Shown: positions 4,511 through 34,274, numbered from the stretch's first letter. The stretch is 64,000 nucleotides of DNA from Acidimicrobiia bacterium (GCA_965215185.1 OZ244034.1:341863-405862); one strand, 5' to 3'. Program-made: numbers and translations. Notes: a model not told the origin generated them from the letters alone.

Positions 4511-5167
4511 TTAGTCCTGCTTGGGAATGATCTTATCCCACCACCTTCGCGCGGCGGGGATACCGCCCACGCCGAAGGCGATGGCAAGGGATACCCCCAC
4601 TGTGCCGACGATGGCGATGAACAGGGTGTTTACGATCTCCTCGGCGATGTTCAGGGTGTTCAGAGCAGCAAGTGCACCGAAGCCGACCACCATCCAGCGC
4701 GCCACTTCGGGCAGCCAGCGTATGCTGTGATCCTGTGACCAAGGAGTCGAAACCTCGGCGATAAAAGCGCCGATGGCCGCGGCCACGATCACAATGATGA
4801 TCGCCACCACTATCAAAGGCAGATAGGAGATAAGCGCAGTCAGCAGGTCGCTCAGGTTATCCACTTCCAGCGTTTGTGCGGCGAGCAGCAGCACCACCAG
4901 CAAGGTGGCCCAGTAGATAACGCGGGCTACCAGATCCGTGGCGGTGATGCCGGCGGCCTTGATCCGCTCAGCGAGCCCCGCACGTTCCAGTATCCGGTCC
5001 AAGCCGACCCCCTGCAGAAGCCGGGCAGCCCCCCGGTGGATGACCCGGGCGGCTATCCAACCAACAAAGAGAATTAAGAGGGCCCCTAAGAACTTGGGGA
5101 CGAATGTGATGACATCTTGCCATGCCTCTTCAAGGCCGTCTGAGATGCCATCAAGAAAGTCACTCAT
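4511..5167 (-). CDS. membrane protein with conserved TM-helix repeats (mechanosensitive-channel-associated family)
   Basis: 218 aa with several hydrophobic helices and repeated 'LxxLLxAL..YLPL/IVxAI' units typical of the PF05552-like TM_helix repeat. Confidence 0.4.
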   Translation of the reverse strand: MSDFLDGISDGLEEAWQDVITFVPKFLGALLILFVGWIAARVIHRGAARLLQGVGLDRILERAGLAERIKAAGITATDLVARVIYWATLLVVLLLAAQTLEVDNLSDLLTALISYLPLIVVAIIIVIVAAAIGAFIAEVSTPWSQDHSIRWLPEVARWMVVGFGALAALNTLNIAEEIVNTLFIAIVGTVGVSLAIAFGVGGIPAARRWWDKIIPKQD

Positions 5168-8444: not shown

Positions 8445-8560
8445 GGGAGCAGACACGGGAGCTCGGTGAAATCGGGCTGAGAGGGAGGATTTGATCCTCC
8501 GACCGTTAGCACCTGATCCGGGTAATGCCGGCGAAGGAAGCTTTCGTTGGTCACAAACTT
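8445..8560 (+). ncRNA. TPP (THI-box) riboswitch upstream of the thiamine-type ABC substrate-binding protein
   Basis: Conserved THI-element cores are present: 'gggctgagag' (8474-8483) and 'acctgatccgggtaatgccggcgaaggaag' (8511-8540). The element sits in the leader of the 8606 gene, with an SD 'aaggag' ~15 nt before the ATG. Confidence 0.8.
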
Positions 8561-27690: not shown

Positions 27691-29038
27691 CAGCTACTTC
27701 AAAACATTCATCTGGCGAGTCGAGAGTCATCAAGTGATGCACGCTGAACTCATAGACCGGCCCGCACGATAGGGTTCCCGGCGCAAGAGGGTATGCCAAG
27801 TTAGCCGCAGTTGCCTTGATACCAGGATACTTGAAGTGATCGATCGATGACCGGACGAAGGCAACGATGGTATCTGCCAGCGTTTGCGACTCAGCGACAA
27901 CCCTGATTAGGAGGCCTACTTCGTGAGCGGGGATTGGGGTGGGTTCTAGATGTCCCATCACTCCATCTCGTCCATACACTACAAAATCGAGATCAAAGTC
28001 GTCACTAAACCGCTGGGCGGTAGCCTCGTGGACGGCGTCGACGATCAAATCAATATTGGATATGAAATACGGATCTCGTGCGCCAGCAATAGTGATCGAA
28101 CGATATCCACGCTGGGTGGCACCCTCGATGAGCACTTCATACCGATCACTCTCGCACCATTCACTCCCGGAGATGTTGACCCACCCATCCTGGGCTTGCT
28201 CGAATTCACTGTTTCCCATCCAGACGTGCCCACCGGGCAAGTACAATCTGGCTGGGTCTGATTCCTCATAAAAGCTTTGGGCGGCGACAGAACGGGGTGA
28301 GCAGACGATGGAGTGTTTGGGCGAGCCGACCGTGAAATGGTCTTCCCTGATTATTCCCGTCATGGACTCGGCGGCACCATGGTCTGCCTCAGAACACATG
28401 GCACCACATTCGAGAATCTGACCCATGTGCCAAGCTAGGCCCTTGGGATAGCCTTCCCTAATCGCCAAAGCAGCAAAAATTGCGGCATCGCAGCTTCGGC
28501 CAGCGATCACGAGATCTGGTTCGAGATCGAGTGCCTCCACTATTTGTTCGACACCCATTAGGCCGACTATGTGAGTCGTTTCTTCGATCGTTTGGACGGA
28601 AAGTTGCTCCTCTGGCCCCAGACTTCTTATCTTGCCGGCACGGAGTTTTCGCTTGATGTAATCCTTGTGCAGCTCTGAACGAACGGTTGCGATGCGGAGG
28701 CTCCATCCACACTCACGAGCAATTTCGTGGGCGATGTCAAGCATCCATTCGATCCCAAAGTCAGACCCGGACGTTCCAGCGGAGCCGATAACCACGGGAA
28801 TGCGCCGTGAGCGGCTGGCAGTCAGAATCCTGCCTAGGTCGTCGGCCGTTGTGGATCGTGCTGCCTCCACAATGCCCCCACCCAGATTGTGTGGACCAGA
28901 GTCTGTTGAGCCTGCATCAATTCCTATGACGTGCGGGTTCAGAGCTAAGTTCATTTCGAAGCTGTCATCAGGGAATCCGAAACCCAGCATGCCCGTAGGG
29001 ACTAGAGTCCGTAGCTCTCGACTTGCCCTGTGGACCAT
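27674..29038 (-). CDS. acyclic-terpene-utilisation AtuA-like protein (DUF1446)
   Basis: 454 aa, about the right length. It has an N-terminal 'LGFGFP' region and is partnered with DUF4387 immediately downstream. Confidence 0.6.
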   Translation of the reverse strand: MVHRASRELRTLVPTGMLGFGFPDDSFEMNLALNPHVIGIDAGSTDSGPHNLGGGIVEAARSTTADDLGRILTASRSRRIPVVIGSAGTSGSDFGIEWMLDIAHEIARECGWSLRIATVRSELHKDYIKRKLRAGKIRSLGPEEQLSVQTIEETTHIVGLMGVEQIVEALDLEPDLVIAGRSCDAAIFAALAIREGYPKGLAWHMGQILECGAMCSEADHGAAESMTGIIREDHFTVGSPKHSIVCSPRSVAAQSFYEESDPARLYLPGGHVWMGNSEFEQAQDGWVNISGSEWCESDRYEVLIEGATQRGYRSITIAGARDPYFISNIDLIVDAVHEATAQRFSDDFDLDFVVYGRDGVMGHLEPTPIPAHEVGLLIRVVAESQTLADTIVAFVRSSIDHFKYPGIKATAANLAYPLAPGTLSCGPVYEFSVHHLMTLDSPDECFEVAVGSYS

Positions 29039-29096
29039 TTCTCTCCTCTGCCGATCCGCACTCCGTCTTTGGTGTGCCAGTTACTATAGCGGCTCT

Positions 29097-29853
29097 TCGA
29101 TGCTCCTATGGTTGTCAAATCGATGCTTCTATGTTTGCCAAATCGAGTTTTTGGGGTCGGGGTTTAGTTTGGCCGGTTTAGGGGGTTTGGGGTGTTGGTG
29201 GTGGGTTTTGGAGGAGTCGATGCTCCTATGTTTTGCAAATCGGGTTCTGGTGGGTGAGCCAGTGGTGGTATCGGGTGGCGAGTTGATGGTTGTGGTATAG
29301 GCCTCGTTCGAGTTGTGAGAGGCGTGTTGGCTGGGTGTGGAGGGCTGTGGCGGCGTGAGTGAGCGATGTTTGGGTGTTTTGGCGTAGGCAGCGGAGATGG
29401 GCGCCGTTGGGTGTTTGGGGCGGGTTGGTCAACAGTTGGTAGACCTGGCGGGCAATGTAGATGCTCCTATGGTTGTCAAATCGAGTTTTGGTGGGGTGTG
29501 AGGGCGGTGAGCCATTGGTGGTATTGGGTGGCGAGTTGGTGGTTGTGGTATAGGCCTCGTTCGAGTTGTGAGATGCGGTTGGGGTGGGTTTGTAGGGCGG
29601 TGGCGGCGTGGGTGAGGGTTGTTAGCGCGTTTTTGCGTAGACAGCGAAGATGGGCGCCGTTGGGGGTTTCGGGTGGGTTGGTGAGCAGGTGGTAGATCTC
29701 CCGGGCGATGTGGCGTTTTAGGCAGCGGATGATCTCCCGGCGGTTTTTGCCTTCTGTTTGTCTTTTTTGGGCGTAGGCGATGGTGGTCTGGTCGTAGCGC
29801 ATGCGGGTGATGGCGATCCGCCACAGGGATGCTTCTATGATTTCCAAATCGAG
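29097..29853. repeat. five dispersed copies of a ~26-nt motif GATGCT(C/T)CTATG(G/T/A)TT(G/T)(T/C)CAAATCG(A/G)G that mark the junctions of truncated IS110 3'-end copies
   Basis: Copies at 29099-29123, 29124-29150, 29219-29246, 29460-29486 and 29828-29853, each followed by G/T-rich sequence. Confidence 0.6.
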
Positions 29854-29900
29854 TTTTTGGGGTCGGGGTGACCAACAGGGCAGCGGCTTGTTTGGCGGGT

Positions 29901-31021
29901 TTAGGGGGTTCGGGGTGTTGGTGGTGGGTTTTCGAGTAGTCGGTAGAGGTGGCGGGCGATGTACCGTTTGAGGCAGCGGCGGGTTTCGCGGGTGGTTTTT
30001 CCTTGGGCGGTGCGTTTGGCGATGTAGGCCCGGGTTTTGGGACAGTGTCGGGTGCGGGTGATGGCGATGGTGTGGAGGGCTCGGTTTAGTTGGCGGTCAC
30101 CGCGTCGGTTTAGTCGGTGGCGGGTTTGTTGTCCTGAGGAGGCTTGGAGGGGGGCTACGCCGGCCAGGCGAGCGAAGGCGGCTTCGTTGCGGTATCGGCC
30201 TGGGTGGGACCAGGCGATGTAGATTTGTGCGGCGGTGATGGGGCCTATCCCGGGTTGGTCGAGCAGCTGGGGAGCGACGGTTTCGACCAGTTTGGCGATG
30301 GGTGTTTGCAGTTCTGCTATTTCGGTGGTGAGCGTGCGGATACGCCGGGCTACAGATCGCATGGCCATTTTGGTGGCGGTGTGTTCGTTTCGGGAACCAG
30401 GGGTTGGTTGACTCGGTCGGAACTTGTGGCACTTGGTGATCAAAGCGGTGGTGGTGAGACTTCGGAGTTGGTCTCTGAGATCGACCGGCGCGGTTACTAC
30501 CAGGGCTTTGAGCGCGTTATGGCTGCTATCCGGGCGGTTTGGGCGCCTTGGCGGGTGGTTTCCAGTACTCGGAGGGCTTCTCGGTCTCCCCGAGCGCGGG
30601 GTACCGAAGGCCGGCGTCCCAGCGCCTGGCGGGCGGCTCGTCGAGCGTCCAGCGCGTCGGTTTTGGCGCCGTCGCGGGTCGGGTAGGGATGGTTGAACTC
30701 TATTACCCACTCGCCAGCAGCGCCAAGATAGGTGGCGGCCCCTGTTCCGTAGCTGTCGGCGCCTTCCACCGCCCACGCCCGTTCTGCGGATGTGTGCTGG
30801 TTTGCCCACTCCAACATCTGGGCATATCCGCCGCTGGTTGTCCCAAACCGTGCGGACGCCAACTCTGCGGTGGTGGAAGCGTCCACCACCGACGCGGTTA
30901 CCCAATCACGATCAGGATCGATCCCGATCACATGGTCTACCATTGTGGCCAACATAAGAAAACCTTCTCTTTCTTGTGAAACTGGGCTGTTCGCCTCACG
31001 AGGCGCAAACCGTGACGGCAA
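29901..31021 (-). CDS. IS110-family transposase, copy c (complete C-terminus; DEDD N-domain and C-domain in different frames, so frameshifted or pseudogene)
   Basis: ORF 30497-31021 = 'MLATMVDHVIGIDPDRDWVTASVVD...' (N-domain). ORF 29901-30905 carries '...LKALVVTAPVDLRDQLR...AARLAGVAPLQASSGQQTRHRLNRRGDRQLNRALHTIAITR...' in another frame. Confidence 0.75.
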
Positions 31022-31136
31022 GACTGTGATGGGTCACACCAATTTTGGTGGACAAGCTTCTGATCAGGCCAGCAACGCAAACGCCCAGAAGGCGCAGTGG
31101 GCGGTATCGGACATATCCCTATAAAAGACACAACGG

Positions 31137-32171
31137 TCATGGTTGTTGTGGGTCACGACACCGCCTACTGACGCCTATCCTGGCAACCTCTAAGGAGGCT
31201 CCCCTAATACTCACAGCGTTGTTGGCTTGGCGGTCGCCGCCCCGGTTGAGCCGGTGGCGTATGGTCCGTCCCGACGACGCCTGGACGGGACTGGCGCCGC
31301 ACAATGCTGCGAAGGACGCTTCCGATTGCATGCGTTCGGGGTTGTCACCAGCGGTGACCAACAGGGCAGCGGCGGTGTCGGCGCCGACTCTGGAGGCGGC
31401 TAACAGCGCCGGGTTGACCTGGGCGCAGAGATGGTTGATCTGGGTGGTGAGTTCTTCGATCTCGGCGGTGAGCGCCTGATATCGGCGGGCCAGGGAACGC
31501 AGCGCCTTTTTGGCGTAGGTGACGGTGATGGTGGCTGTTCGGGGACGGAAACCGGCGCAGGCCTTGACGCGGGCTTTGGCCGGCAGTCTCTCTAGCTGGT
31601 GTTTGACCTGGTCGGGGGCGGTTACCACCAAAGCGTGCAGCTGGTTTATGGCCTGGGTGCGGGCTTTGGTCGCCGAACGGCGGGCCACCGAAAGCATCCG
31701 TATTGCTTCCACCCGACCGTTGCCGCTTTTGGGCACTGCGGTGGCCTGTCCGTTGAGAACCGCCCGTGCCGCTCCTTGGGCGTCGGTGGCGTCGGTCTTG
31801 CCCAACCGGCGGCGCAGCTGCCGGTTGGGACGGTTCACCTCTGTCACCTCGACACCGGCCTCGGTTAGATAACGGGCCAGGCCGGCGCCGTAACTGCCGG
31901 TGCCCTCTATACCGACCCGGACCACTCGACCGTGTGACCCCAACCAGTCGCCCAGTTGCTGATAACCGGCCGTGTCGGCCACGAAGGAGGCTGTTCCCAG
32001 GACCCGACCGGTGCTGTCCACCACCGCCGCCATGTGAACATCCCGGTGGGTGTCCACCCCACCGCACACATCTACCTGCTGACCTACTGACATGAACAAT
32101 CCTCCTTGGATAGAATTCTGGCTAATCACCCAGACCCGGTGGCGGGTGGACAGATCAAGCCAAAGGCACAA
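31137..32171 (-). CDS. IS110-family transposase, copy b (divergent paralogue; C-terminus cut after 'RLNRGGDRQAN' by copy c)
   Basis: 'MSVGQQVDVCGGVDTHRDVHMAAVVD...SFAALCGASPVQASSGRTIRHRLNRGGDRQAN'. The final ~60 residues of a normal IS110 transposase are missing, and the next copy's left end starts there. Confidence 0.8.
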   Translation of the reverse strand: MCLWLDLSTRHRVWVISQNSIQGGLFMSVGQQVDVCGGVDTHRDVHMAAVVDSTGRVLGTASFVADTAGYQQLGDWLGSHGRVVRVGIEGTGSYGAGLARYLTEAGVEVTEVNRPNRQLRRRLGKTDATDAQGAARAVLNGQATAVPKSGNGRVEAIRMLSVARRSATKARTQAINQLHALVVTAPDQVKHQLERLPAKARVKACAGFRPRTATITVTYAKKALRSLARRYQALTAEIEELTTQINHLCAQVNPALLAASRVGADTAAALLVTAGDNPERMQSEASFAALCGASPVQASSGRTIRHRLNRGGDRQANNAVSIRGASLEVARIGVSRRCRDPQQP

Positions 32172-32216
32172 CGGCCAGGTTGAGTTTGGGTCAGACCTGC
32201 CCCGGCCTAGGGGCCC

Positions 32217-33101
32217 TTACAAGTATGAGTGGTTGAGTTGGCGGTCGCCTCGTCGGTTGAGTCGGTGGCGGGTGTGTTGCCCCGAAGACGCTTGGAGAGG
32301 GGCTACGCCGGCCAGGCGAGCGAAGGCGGCTTCGTTGCGGCAGCGGCCTGGGTGGGACCAGGCGATGAGCACTTGGGCGGCGGTGATGGGACCTACCCCG
32401 CGCTGGTTCAGCAGTTGCGGAGCTGCGGCTGTGATCATTTCGGCGATGGGCGTTTTCAGCTCTGCTATTTCATTGTTGAGGTTGCGGATGCGTCTGGCTG
32501 TAGAACGTAGGGCTTGTTTGGTGGCGGTGAGTTCGTTGACGGGTGCGGGTGGGATTCGAAACACCGAGCATTTGGCCACCAGAGCAGTTGTGCTCAGACC
32601 TCGGAGTTGGTCCCGAAGATCGACCGGAGCGGTTACTACCAGGGCTTTTAGCTGGTTGATCGCCGATACTCTGGCCCCTTGGGCGCCCTGGCGGGTGGTT
32701 TCCAACACTCGCAAGGCTTCGCGGTCTCCCCTGGCCCGCGGTACGGATGGCCACGGGCGGCCCAGCACTTGGCGGGCGGCCCGGCGGGCGTCCAGTGCGT
32801 CGGGTTTGGCGCCGTCGCGGGTCGGGGCGGGATCGTTGAACTCTTTCACCAGTTCCCCTCGGGCGATAAGGTAACCGGTCACGCCGGCTCCGTAACTGCC
32901 CGAGCCTTCCACCGACCACACTCGACCGGCGGCCTGGGTGTGCTGGTCGGCCCATTTCAACAACCGGTCATACCCTGACCGGGTGGTTCCGAACACTCCG
33001 GATGCTTGTTCTCCGGTAGTGGCGGTGTCAACTACTGAGGCGGTGACTCGGTCCCGATCAGGATCGATCCCGATCACATGCTTTACCATTGTGGCCAACA
33101 T
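32217..33101 (-). CDS. IS110-family transposase, copy a (C-terminus cut after 'RLNRRGDRQLN' by copy b)
   Basis: 294 aa from 'MLATMVKHVIGIDPDRDRVTASVVD' to '...HRLNRRGDRQLNHSYL*'. In the ORF track it is read through from the upstream host gene as one 685-aa ORF. Confidence 0.8.
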   Translation of the reverse strand: MLATMVKHVIGIDPDRDRVTASVVDTATTGEQASGVFGTTRSGYDRLLKWADQHTQAAGRVWSVEGSGSYGAGVTGYLIARGELVKEFNDPAPTRDGAKPDALDARRAARQVLGRPWPSVPRARGDREALRVLETTRQGAQGARVSAINQLKALVVTAPVDLRDQLRGLSTTALVAKCSVFRIPPAPVNELTATKQALRSTARRIRNLNNEIAELKTPIAEMITAAAPQLLNQRGVGPITAAQVLIAWSHPGRCRNEAAFARLAGVAPLQASSGQHTRHRLNRRGDRQLNHSYL

Positions 33102-33365
33102 AAGAAACCTTCTCTTTCTTGTGCGAACTGGGCTGGTGCCTCGCAAGGCGCAAACCGTGACGGCAGGACTGTGACGGGTCACACCCTGTGGGTGGACAGG
33201 CTTCTGATCAGGCCAGCAACGGAACGCCCAGGGGCGTCGCGGCGGTGTCGGACATATCAAGTCAAAGAAACAAAGGTCAGAGTGGCCTCGGGTCACGACA
33301 CCACCGCTGACGCCAATCCTGGCAGCCTCTACAAGGCCCCCCAATACCCACAGAGCGGCCTGTGA

Positions 33366-34274
33366 CTCCAGCTCCAGCAGGGTTTTTTGGTGTGGTGTGG
33401 CGGCAATCTCCCTTGCCGAGCGATTGGCCAGGGCTTGTGGAAGATCAGCCAGAAGATCCGGCTGCTGGCCGGCTGCCGGTGGGGAATAGCCACCCAACAG
33501 CCTTAACACGGTTCCAAGTTCCATGTACTCCCCATCGCCCAAAGCGATGTTTCTTTCCCCACACAGAGCTACCCCTCCTGCTCCTATGACGCTTAGTTCT
33601 CCTTTTCCGAAGTCGATCACCGCCACGGTGTGTTCATCCACTCCGATTATGCCCAAACCGGCGGGAAGCATGGCTTTCAGCAGTTCAAATCGCCGGCGCC
33701 CCATGTAGCACCGGCTCGTGTCGAAGCCCTGGCCCTCGGTGTTGTTCCAGTGTGGAATGAACACCGCCTCCAGGCCCAGATGGGAGGTGAGGTCCAATCC
33801 TTCCAGCCACCCCAGCCCGGAGCCCACTTTGTAGATCTCGTAGACGGGAAGAGTCTTCACTCCGGCCGTGAGGGCGGCGGCCGACGCCACTGTCACGGTG
33901 GCGCCAGTCGAGAGAAGATCTCGCAGCGCCGAGGCCAGCGGCGTCTCTTTCCACACTCCCAAGGCATAGGTAGGCGATCCCGGTCCGGCGAAGACGTAAC
34001 GGGCGCGGCGGACGGCGGCCAGCATCTCTTCGCAGGCGAGGGCGCCCGCTTCGGCAGAGCGGTAGGAGACCACCCCCGCCTCTATGGACAGGCTGGTGGT
34101 GAAAAAGGTAGCCAGCTTTTCGGAATTGAGGGTGGCGTTCTCCTGGAATCCGTAGGGGGTGTCGAGCACCAGCACTTGATGGGCCTTGGCCGCTTCGATC
34201 CCCAGCCGATGGGCAGCTAGCAGCCGATTGGAGGTCTCTCCAGATCCCATGAGAATCAGGCGTCCCGCTCTCAA
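33366..34274 (-). CDS. GATase1-like/peptidase S51 (cyanophycinase-like) family protein, 3' end disrupted by IS110 copy a
   Basis: N-terminal ~300 aa 'MRAGRLILMGSGETSNRLL...VLVLDTPYGFQ...' reads with no stop into the IS110 left end. The family call is weak. Confidence 0.3.

Follow-up and report, generated by a model that had tools for sequence, protein, structure and literature searches.

Organisation of the locus

Within a 64,000-nucleotide (nt) stretch of an Acidimicrobiia bacterium metagenome assembly (GCA_965215185.1, OZ244034.1:341863-405862), which we call the window and from whose first letter all positions are counted, insertion sequences (ISs) of the IS110 family lie inside one another and inside a host gene. 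Read on the minus strand from 34274 to 29084, the order is host gene, left part of copy a, left part of copy b, complete copy c, right part of b, fragment d, right part of a, a 23-nt remnant of a right element end (RE) and the end of the host gene. The copies belong to two IS110 lineages, a-type (copies a and c) and b-type (copies b and d). The structure is a nest, in which a holds b and b holds c, followed downstream by a pile of right halves; very probably, it was built by successive site-specific insertions of the two lineages into each other, guided by bridge RNAs. The pattern is one of cross-targeting between lineages, not of self-targeting, as had been proposed in an earlier description made from the sequence alone (the sequence-only reading). 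The parts of the nest, with left element ends abbreviated as LE, are as follows.

33353..34274, minus strand: uncharacterised host gene, an open reading frame (ORF) that enters the LE of a about five codons before its predicted stop
32231..33352, minus strand: a-left, a-type IS110 element; LE at 33102-33352, beginning TGTGGGTATT
33101 to 32232, minus strand: a-left coding sequence; ATG at 33101, cut after ...GDRQLN+C, last base 32231
31216..32230, minus strand: b-left, b-type IS110 element; LE at 32094-32230, beginning ACTCATACTTG
32093 to 31216, minus strand: b-left coding sequence; ATG at 32093, cut after ...GDRQANN+GC
29828..31215, minus strand: copy c, complete a-type element inside b; LE at 30956-31215, beginning TGTGAGTATT
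30955 to 29901, minus strand: coding sequence of copy c; ATG at 30955, stop at 29901, 1-nt frameshift near 30515
29828-29900, minus strand: RE of copy c, terminating in CATAGAAGCATC
29460..29827, minus strand: b-right, of b or of a sister b-type copy; LWRIAITRMRYD...HQNSI and stop, in frame with b-left
end at 29460, minus strand: RE of b-right, terminating in CATAGGAGCATC
29219..29459, minus strand: fragment d, 3′ end of another b-type element, from ...YIARQVY to the RE
29122..29218, minus strand: a-right, a-type 3′ end from (R)LLQNPPP to the RE, most likely the right part of a
29099..29121, minus strand: e, 23-nt remnant of a b-type RE, GATTTGACAACCATAGGAGCATC, 100% identical to the RE of b
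29084..29098, minus strand: putative last codons and stop of the host gene, GAAGAGCCGCTATAG, which would complete the host ORF

Both Pfam domains of the family, DEDD_Tnp_IS110 (PF01548) and Transposase_20 (PF02371), were found above the gathering score in a, in b and in both halves of c, in agreement with the three minus-strand IS110 transposase genes described before. The a-type and b-type proteins share about 43% amino acid identity, b being a divergent paralogue of a, as had been noted. Copies a and c are 78% identical at the nucleotide level, and the copies are mutually 76-85% identical. This divergence and the presence of two lineages rule out a simple tandem duplication and bear out the earlier statement that the copies are not an assembly duplication. 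The two domains of c do lie in different frames, owing to a single-nucleotide frameshift (AAA to AA) at about 30515. In both lineages, both domains align with the recombinases IS621 (PDB 8wt6) and ISCro4 (PDB 9t56), with a remote similarity to IS621 (E 1e-10 to 1e-14). The b-type transposases have an additional C-terminal XRE-type helix-turn-helix (window 29226-29660, minus strand; residues ~345-405 of P0001), recognised as PF13560/PF01381 in many homologues; a-type proteins and IS621 are without it.

The element ends, TGTGRG...AGAAGCATC in a-type and ACTCAT...AGGAGCATC in b-type elements, are not inverted repeats. The a-type elements have an LE of 251-260 nt and an RE of about 73 nt; the b-type elements have an LE of about 230 nt, and their stop codon lies within the last ~25 nt of the element. 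An LE longer than the RE, with the guides in the LE, is the arrangement of the IS110 group. Features of the IS1111 group were not seen, in that the RE is short, the guides are in the LE and a repeat scan of the region reported no subterminal inverted repeat at the ends.

Because b-right continues b-left in frame (...GDRQANNA/LWRIAITRMRYD..., where a slash marks a junction, here and below), c is nested inside b. Of the two further 3′ copies that had been described at 29226-29847, the segment 29476-29847 is thus the displaced 3′ part of b, and only 29219-29459 is a separate fragment, d, with 81% nucleotide identity to b-right; the a-type fragment at 29122-29218 and the remnant at 29099-29121 had not been listed. 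What had been called a head-to-tail stack is therefore a nest with displaced right halves downstream and one later deletion. The LE of b is only 137 nt long: about 98 nt between two CTGTC repeats, including the whole donor-binding loop, are deleted, and an element in locus L055 that is 96% identical to b has the full 230-nt LE (L055 2271-2500). With a and b cut, the donor loop missing from the LE of b and a frameshift in c, every copy in the window is defective, and the earlier claim that such insertions leave piles of inactivated copies holds.

A Pfam search of the host gene gave no match. Its flank is 99% identical in L001, one of the related loci from other assemblies (loci are labelled in the style L001, and protein clusters P0xxx). 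We also considered that the 3′ end of the host gene might be an old IS remnant; this was ruled out, as it has no significant similarity to any IS locus compared.

Cut positions and junctions

Copy a terminates in ...HRLNRRGDRQLN and copy b in ...HRLNRGGDRQAN(NA), at points where copy c reads on as ...GDRQLNRALHTIAITR. Both cuts are within the conserved G-D-R-Q-x-N motif. In the aligned genes they are 4 nt apart, in adjacent codons, and belong to two different guides, so that the identical codon claimed by the sequence-only reading has to be corrected. Copy a is cut after CAA CTC AAC C, that is, after nt 1 of the codon following N (last base 32231), and copy b after AAC AAC GC, after nt 2 of the second codon past the first N (last base 31216). 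The LE of the next element begins exactly at each cut, which makes the earlier "within a few nt" more precise. Two random junctions no more than 4 nt apart would be expected in genes of ~1.2 kb less than 1% of the time. Both junctions are heterotypic, one joining a b-type element to an a-type gene and the other an a-type element to a b-type gene. The cut motif, G(D/N)RQ(L/A)N(R/N)AL, aligns with GHVSLRRAL of IS621 directly past the catalytic-serine region; at the level of whole regions, the alignment spans the ...SG... serine region just upstream of the motif.

Clean insertions in the related loci L025, L054 and L056 show both recipient halves, with the recipient frame restored and no duplication, gain or loss. 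There is no target duplication, and the crossover register was fixed to ±1 nt. A 2-nt core, as in IS621 (CT), was considered, and the a-type left junctions do read ...CT/GTG, but the clean insertions in L056 and L025 agree with one shared C, the donor right end being TC. One additional C is present in b2 and L035.

Predicted bridge-RNA guides in the element ends

The LEs of IS110 elements encode a bridge RNA, whose second loop treats the element's own ends (Durrant et al. 2024, PMC11208160). We located guide blocks by aligning the a-type LEs and the b-type LEs of the window and the related loci and then folding the consensus. Both alignments contain, in order, a hypervariable block of 10-11 nt, a conserved hairpin, a hypervariable block of 6-7 nt and a second stem strand; the stem preceding the first block is GTGACCC in a-type and GGGTCTGAC(C/T)C in b-type elements. 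In the consensus folds, the two hypervariable blocks face each other across an internal loop closed by conserved stems. From these alignments and folds, we infer that each LE codes for a bridge RNA that has two loops, one for target and one for donor binding. The left target guide (LTG), of 10-11 nt, forms the 5′ side of the target loop and is the same in sequence as the DNA on the left of the insertion point; the right target guide (RTG), of 5-7 nt, forms the 3′ side and is the complement of the DNA on the right. The corresponding donor-side segments are termed LDG and RDG. The guides in the window are listed below.

32178..32187, minus strand: LTG of b, AAACUCAACC; 9/10 to CAACTCAACC of the a gene, up to the cut
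32156-32161, minus strand: RTG of b, GGCUUG; pairs with CGAGCC over 6 nt, including one G-U
31139..31149, minus strand: LTG of c, ACAACAACCAU; 7/10 to the b flank CCAACAACGC
31117-31123, minus strand: RTG of c, UAUAGGG; pairs with CCCTGTG/CCCTATG of an intact b gene, 7/7 with two G-U
31054-31062 and 31024-31032, minus strand: LDG and RDG of c
33279..33289, minus strand: LTG of a, GAGGCCACUCU; 9/11 to the host flank CAGGCCGCTCT (8/10 over the first 10 nt)
33258-33263, minus strand: RTG of a, GACUUG
33198-33206, minus strand: LDG of a, CAGAAGCCU
33169-33177, minus strand: RDG of a, CCGUCACAG

The sequence CGAGCC consists of the bases that follow the b target site in the uninterrupted copy c. The target loop of b is accordingly programmed for CAACTCAAC-C-GAGCC, a stretch coding for Q-L-N-R-A within the conserved G-D-R-Q-L-N-R-A-L motif of a-type transposase genes. 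In b, the sequence matched by the guides of c is GCCAACAAC/GC/CCTGTG; the target loop of c is programmed for CCAACAAC-GC-CCTGTG, which codes for A-N-N-A-L-W in the homologous motif of b-type genes. These matches at the junctions uphold the earlier view that insertion is site-specific, with a preferred target in the 3′ part of IS110 transposase genes; the specificity would lie in the bridge RNA of each LE, of which the sequence-only reading made no mention.

In the window, the guide of every element is mismatched to that element's own gene; for b, the agreement is 7/10 and 3/7 on the two sides. Copy c, in turn, retains three empty b-type target sites.

30078-30098, minus strand: GDRQLN/R, with CTA where the guide of b expects CTC
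29958-29976, minus strand: RCLK/R
29936-29954, minus strand: ARHLY/R

A second loop, for donor binding, contains segments that match the element's own right end (LDG) and left end (RDG). The a-type segments are CAGAAGCNU, compared with ATAGAAGCAU in the RE, and UCACAG, the reverse complement of CTGTGA in the LE; the b-type segments are AUAGGAGCCUU, compared with ATAGGAGCATC in the RE, and AUGAGUG, the reverse complement of CACTCAT. Because the donor segments are conserved and do not covary, they are weaker evidence than the target loop. A putative sigma-70-like promoter, similar to the junction promoter of IS621, would span the RE-LE junction of a b-type circle, with TTGACA as the -35 and CATACT as the -10 element, 17 bp apart; in the window, this putative circle junction corresponds to 29460-29482 joined to 32230-32215.

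Guides covary with flanks in related elements

Guides and flanks change together across ~25 related elements from Acidimicrobiia and other metagenome-assembled genomes (MAGs), several of which seem to belong to sponge symbionts such as Candidatus Spongiisociaceae. We permuted the guides among elements in 20,000 trials, scoring the left and right sides separately, and the observed totals were reached in none of them on either side (p<5e-5). The b-type LTGs match their own flank at a mean of 8.0 of 10 positions (n=15), compared with 4.6 for non-own pairs (p<5e-5); in 11 of the 15 the match is at least 8/10, every sequence being different. Pairing of the b-type RTGs with the right flank of the same element extends over runs of 1-7 nt (5-7 nt in 8 of 13 elements), compared with an average of 1.4 for non-own pairs (p<5e-5). 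For six a-type guides, 7-10 of 10 positions agree with the element's own flank. L001_a2 and L040_a match, at 9/10, two variants of one site, which lies in an antisense b-type bridge-RNA gene, and the a′ elements of L034, L020, L023 and L027 match, at 11/11, ACGATTTGACT, the start of the b-type RE. Guides also covary with flanks at sites outside IS genes. Additional cognate cases were found in L052, L053, L054, L056 and L057; the following sites, together with that of L025, illustrate the range.

L054: site HRLN/; LTG AGGCUCAACC
L053: site RCLK/; LTG AGCCUCAAAC
L025: site RCLK/ in a b-type gene; LTG AGCCUGAAAC, RTG reverse complement CGCTACC
L052: site ARHLY/; RTG reverse complement CGACTCAA; right flank as at the d/a-right junction of the window
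L056: site ANNA, clean and in frame; AACAACGC/.../CCTATGG

In elements aimed at HRLN/ or RCLK/, the homologous codons of the element's own gene depart from the guide, partly through synonymous changes. The L054 b-type element, which targets HRLN/, has AAT for AAC at its own homologous site (about position 1081 of the element), and L025b, which targets RCLK/, has AGG for CGC (about position 1219). Together with the CTA in copy c, these changes, from a small sample, may hint at escape or immunity by recoding.

Recurrence and independence of the insertions

Among the best 120 a-type protein clusters, the set used for our protein counts, 14 end in a read-through into a b-type LE, 'HSY(L)': nine at GDRQLN/ (all ending GDRQLN+HSYL), one at HRLN/, one at ARHLY/, two at RCLK/ and one as an odd hybrid. 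P0248 and P0250 end in ...ANNAVSIRGASLEVARIGVSRRCRDPQQP, by read-through into an a-type LE, exactly as b does in the window, and L043 has a junction identical to that in the window. In L057 (3265-7951), a nest of several layers from another sample, a b-type gene is cut at ANNA by an a-type element that is itself cut at HRLN/ and GDRQLN/, one a-type gene thus having been struck at two sites by two b-type elements with different cognate guides; a junction at site RCLK is present there as well.

The fragments downstream of c start at such sites. Fragment d starts at the RCLK(R)/YIAR hot spot, no more than 2 nt from its position elsewhere (a clean cognate insertion in L025; P0249 and P0262). The start of a-right is the ARHLY/R hot spot, at which d would have gone in, as also seen in P0132, and the right flank at the d/a-right junction, CGACTCCTCCAAAACCC, is identical in L052, whose RTG matches. 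At its start, the putative host gene end is similar to sequences that serve other b-type elements as right targets.

Between the window, L056, L057 and L043, the recipient b-type genes share no more than 74-78% identity, whereas the a-type elements inserted in them are 97-99% identical (c compared with the L056 and L057 insertions) or, for L043, 89-93% identical. At GDRQLN/, the target-loop regions of the inserted b elements are 96% identical and the recipient a genes 76%. Because the inserted elements are nearly identical and the recipients have diverged, these were independent insertions by young elements into old copies. The junction types recur in assemblies made independently, among them one Illumina MAG and several long-read assemblies from ENA. 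Moreover, L001 and L002, from other samples, have flanks that are 99% identical to those of the window and carry a different nest, although the same remnant stack as in the window is present in both. In L001 (1980-8000) and L002, the nest comprises the first 160 nt of the LE of a, two inverted b-type elements, an IS3-family element and another a-type element, which lies within the antisense bridge-RNA gene of one b-type element. Since different nests lie within 99% identical flanks, the locus is a polymorphic hot spot and not an assembly artefact.

Alternative explanations

What could have produced this nest other than guided insertion of each lineage into the other? An element might prefer a site in its own transposase gene, so that identical copies pile up head to tail. 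We consider this unlikely. Every hot spot does lie within IS110 transposase genes, and b-type elements are found inside b-type genes elsewhere, struck by b-type LEs at HRLN/ and RCLK/; for the IS110 family as a whole, the earlier idea of self-targeting therefore comes close. In the window, however, each insertion is heterotypic, both guided junctions joining lineages of ~43% amino acid identity, and the guide of b agrees with its own gene at only 7/10 and 3/7 positions, while L054_b and L025b differ from their guides at the codons AAT and AGG of their own homologous sites; the displaced right halves, too, indicate nesting rather than tandem stacking. It is more doubtful still that paralogous transposase genes simply recombined at the microhomology of GDRQxN, with no RNA guidance. 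Recombination between paralogues does occur: in L043 (4980-5060), an a-type and a b-type sequence are fused at the conserved ACATCGCCC of (R)YIAR, P0155 has the sequence ...GDR/HLY/HSY, as if the GDRQLN and ARHLY sites (sites 1 and 2) had recombined, and one deletion in the window must be invoked in any case. At both cuts, though, the partner is the start of an LE and not a homologous gene segment, guides covary with flanks outside IS genes too, and the clean insertions in L025, L054 and L056 retain both recipient halves. A collapse or chimeric joining of separate IS110 loci by the assembler is highly improbable. Contiguity is taken from the assembly, the source is a metagenome, and IS repeats are classic sites of misassembly; yet the copies are too divergent for collapse, the host/a, a/b and b/c junctions coincide exactly with the terminus of an element whose guide is cognate, and both the recurrence of the junction types in independent assemblies and the different nest between the flanks of L001/L002 speak against it.

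Several observations weigh against guided insertion of the two lineages into each other as a full account. The RTG of b does not fit the right flank of this copy (TACATTGCC..., fragment d), and an extra element and a recombination event must therefore be postulated; a comparison with P0007/P0008 for chimerism of b (96% on the left, 92-93% on the right) was uninformative. The LTG of c agrees with its flank at 7/10 only. The crossover register, with a 1- or 2-nt core, is ambiguous by ±1 nt among the b-type copies, and the c/b-right junction is short of one C in a GCCC run compared with the clean junction in L056. Non-cognate insertions exist, in L042 and L055, and no cognate guide was found among the elements examined for the remnant breakpoints at -23 and -11. 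An Rfam search of 28500-34000 gave no match at E<=1, and production and use of the RNA as in IS621 would follow from the covariation of guides with flanks and from the analogy to IS621.

Some of these irregularities recur elsewhere. Junctions that are cognate on one side only were found in L001_a2, L042, L055 and the right side of b. L042 and L005, two copies in one genome (OZ253443.1), share identical guides, and the L042 flanks are non-cognate on both sides, which suggests that L042 was relocated by a route other than guided insertion. Right-end remnants of 23 nt (GATTTG...GCATC) and 11 nt (ATAGRAGCATC) are stacked directly past intact REs in the window (29099-29145), L001 (7872-7940), L029 (~4960-4982) and L055 (~3740), and L010 (3088-3157) has a 35-nt tandem of RE and flank. 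For the a′ elements, the programmed cutting site is GATTTGAC. Such stacks may have arisen by half-match recombination or by re-mobilisation via the outer right end, both of which we regard as candidates.

Successive guided insertion of the two lineages nonetheless remains by far the best account of the locus, and the following order of events would produce it. A b-type element would have occupied the 3′ end of the host gene and left 23 nt of its right end, and the a-type element a would then have inserted at that place. Subsequently, d may have entered a at ARHLY/R and b may have entered a at GDRQLN/R, after which a second b-type copy would have inserted into d at RCLK(R)/YIAR. Copy c would have gone into b or into the sister b-type copy. 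Homologous recombination between two direct b-type repeats could then have excised the central part of a as well as the left portion of d, and later decay would have removed the donor loop of b and frameshifted c.

Comparison with known systems

Bridge-RNA recombination by IS621 of the IS110 group (PMC11208160; PMC11208158) resembles the present case closely. The recombinase is of the same type, DEDD plus Tnp (PF01548 and PF02371), with a long LE and a short RE; the RNA of the LE has two internal loops, whose 5′ sides correspond to the top strand of the left target or donor and whose 3′ sides are complementary to the right; there are neither terminal inverted repeats nor target duplications; and the putative -35 (TTGACA) in the RE would face the -10-like CATACT of the LE in a circle junction. 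IS621, in contrast, targets REP sequences with a CT core, whereas the core here is apparently a single C (TC on the donor side), the targets are the transposase codons, bridge-RNA gene or right end of the other IS110 lineage, and the b-type protein has the additional XRE-type helix-turn-helix. IS621 can carry out half-match recombination in vitro (bioRxiv 10.64898/2026.08.31.748434). This is a precedent for the one-side-cognate junctions of L001_a2, L042, L055 and the right side of b, and half-match recombination is a candidate source of the non-cognate junctions and right-end remnants described here. A limited literature search found no report of IS110 elements programmed against the coding sequence, bridge-RNA gene or ends of other IS110 lineages. 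The mechanism is already known; within the scope of that search, the choice of target is new.

IS110-family elements target repeats, and IS1111-group elements target the ends of Tn21-type transposons. The latter resemble the elements described here in that a specific target inside another mobile element is used, which the inserted element rides on and disables. They have a long RE and subterminal inverted repeats, however, and strike the non-coding ends of an unrelated transposon family, whereas in the present case members of one IS family strike each other's coding sequence, and do so reciprocally between two lineages.

Significance

Bridge-RNA recombinases are being engineered as programmable genome editors; to our knowledge, little is known of how natural guides evolve or which targets they have beyond REP-like repeats. 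In the elements studied here, one conserved RNA scaffold bears many different natural guide pairs, several of which aim at the coding sequence, bridge-RNA gene or ends of other IS110 elements, and the targeting is reciprocal between two lineages. They thus form a natural data set of cognate guide/target pairs, complete with mismatches, wobble pairs and half-matched junctions, and they offer an explanation for the IS110 "graveyards" in these host-associated Acidimicrobiia genomes. For annotation, truncated IS110 genes ending in ...GDRQLNHSYL or ...ANNAVSIRG should be read as insertion junctions and not as sequencing errors.

A hypothesis that can be tested also follows: RNA-guided transposons may compete among themselves or find shelter inside each other. 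As a tentative extension, the two lineages may wage an RNA-guided interference competition, in which target loops are reprogrammed time and again onto conserved transposase codons of the rival that are hard to change (the GDRQxN, ARHLY and RCLKR motifs) and onto its bridge-RNA genes and ends, while each element escapes its own guide and those of its rivals by synonymous recoding. If true, programmable transposons would here be locked in a natural arms race, which would at the same time be a host-neutral safe-harbour strategy.

Apart from the nest, the sole match at the Rfam gathering score in the window was a TPP riboswitch (RF00059, 65 bits) at 8445-8556 on the plus strand.

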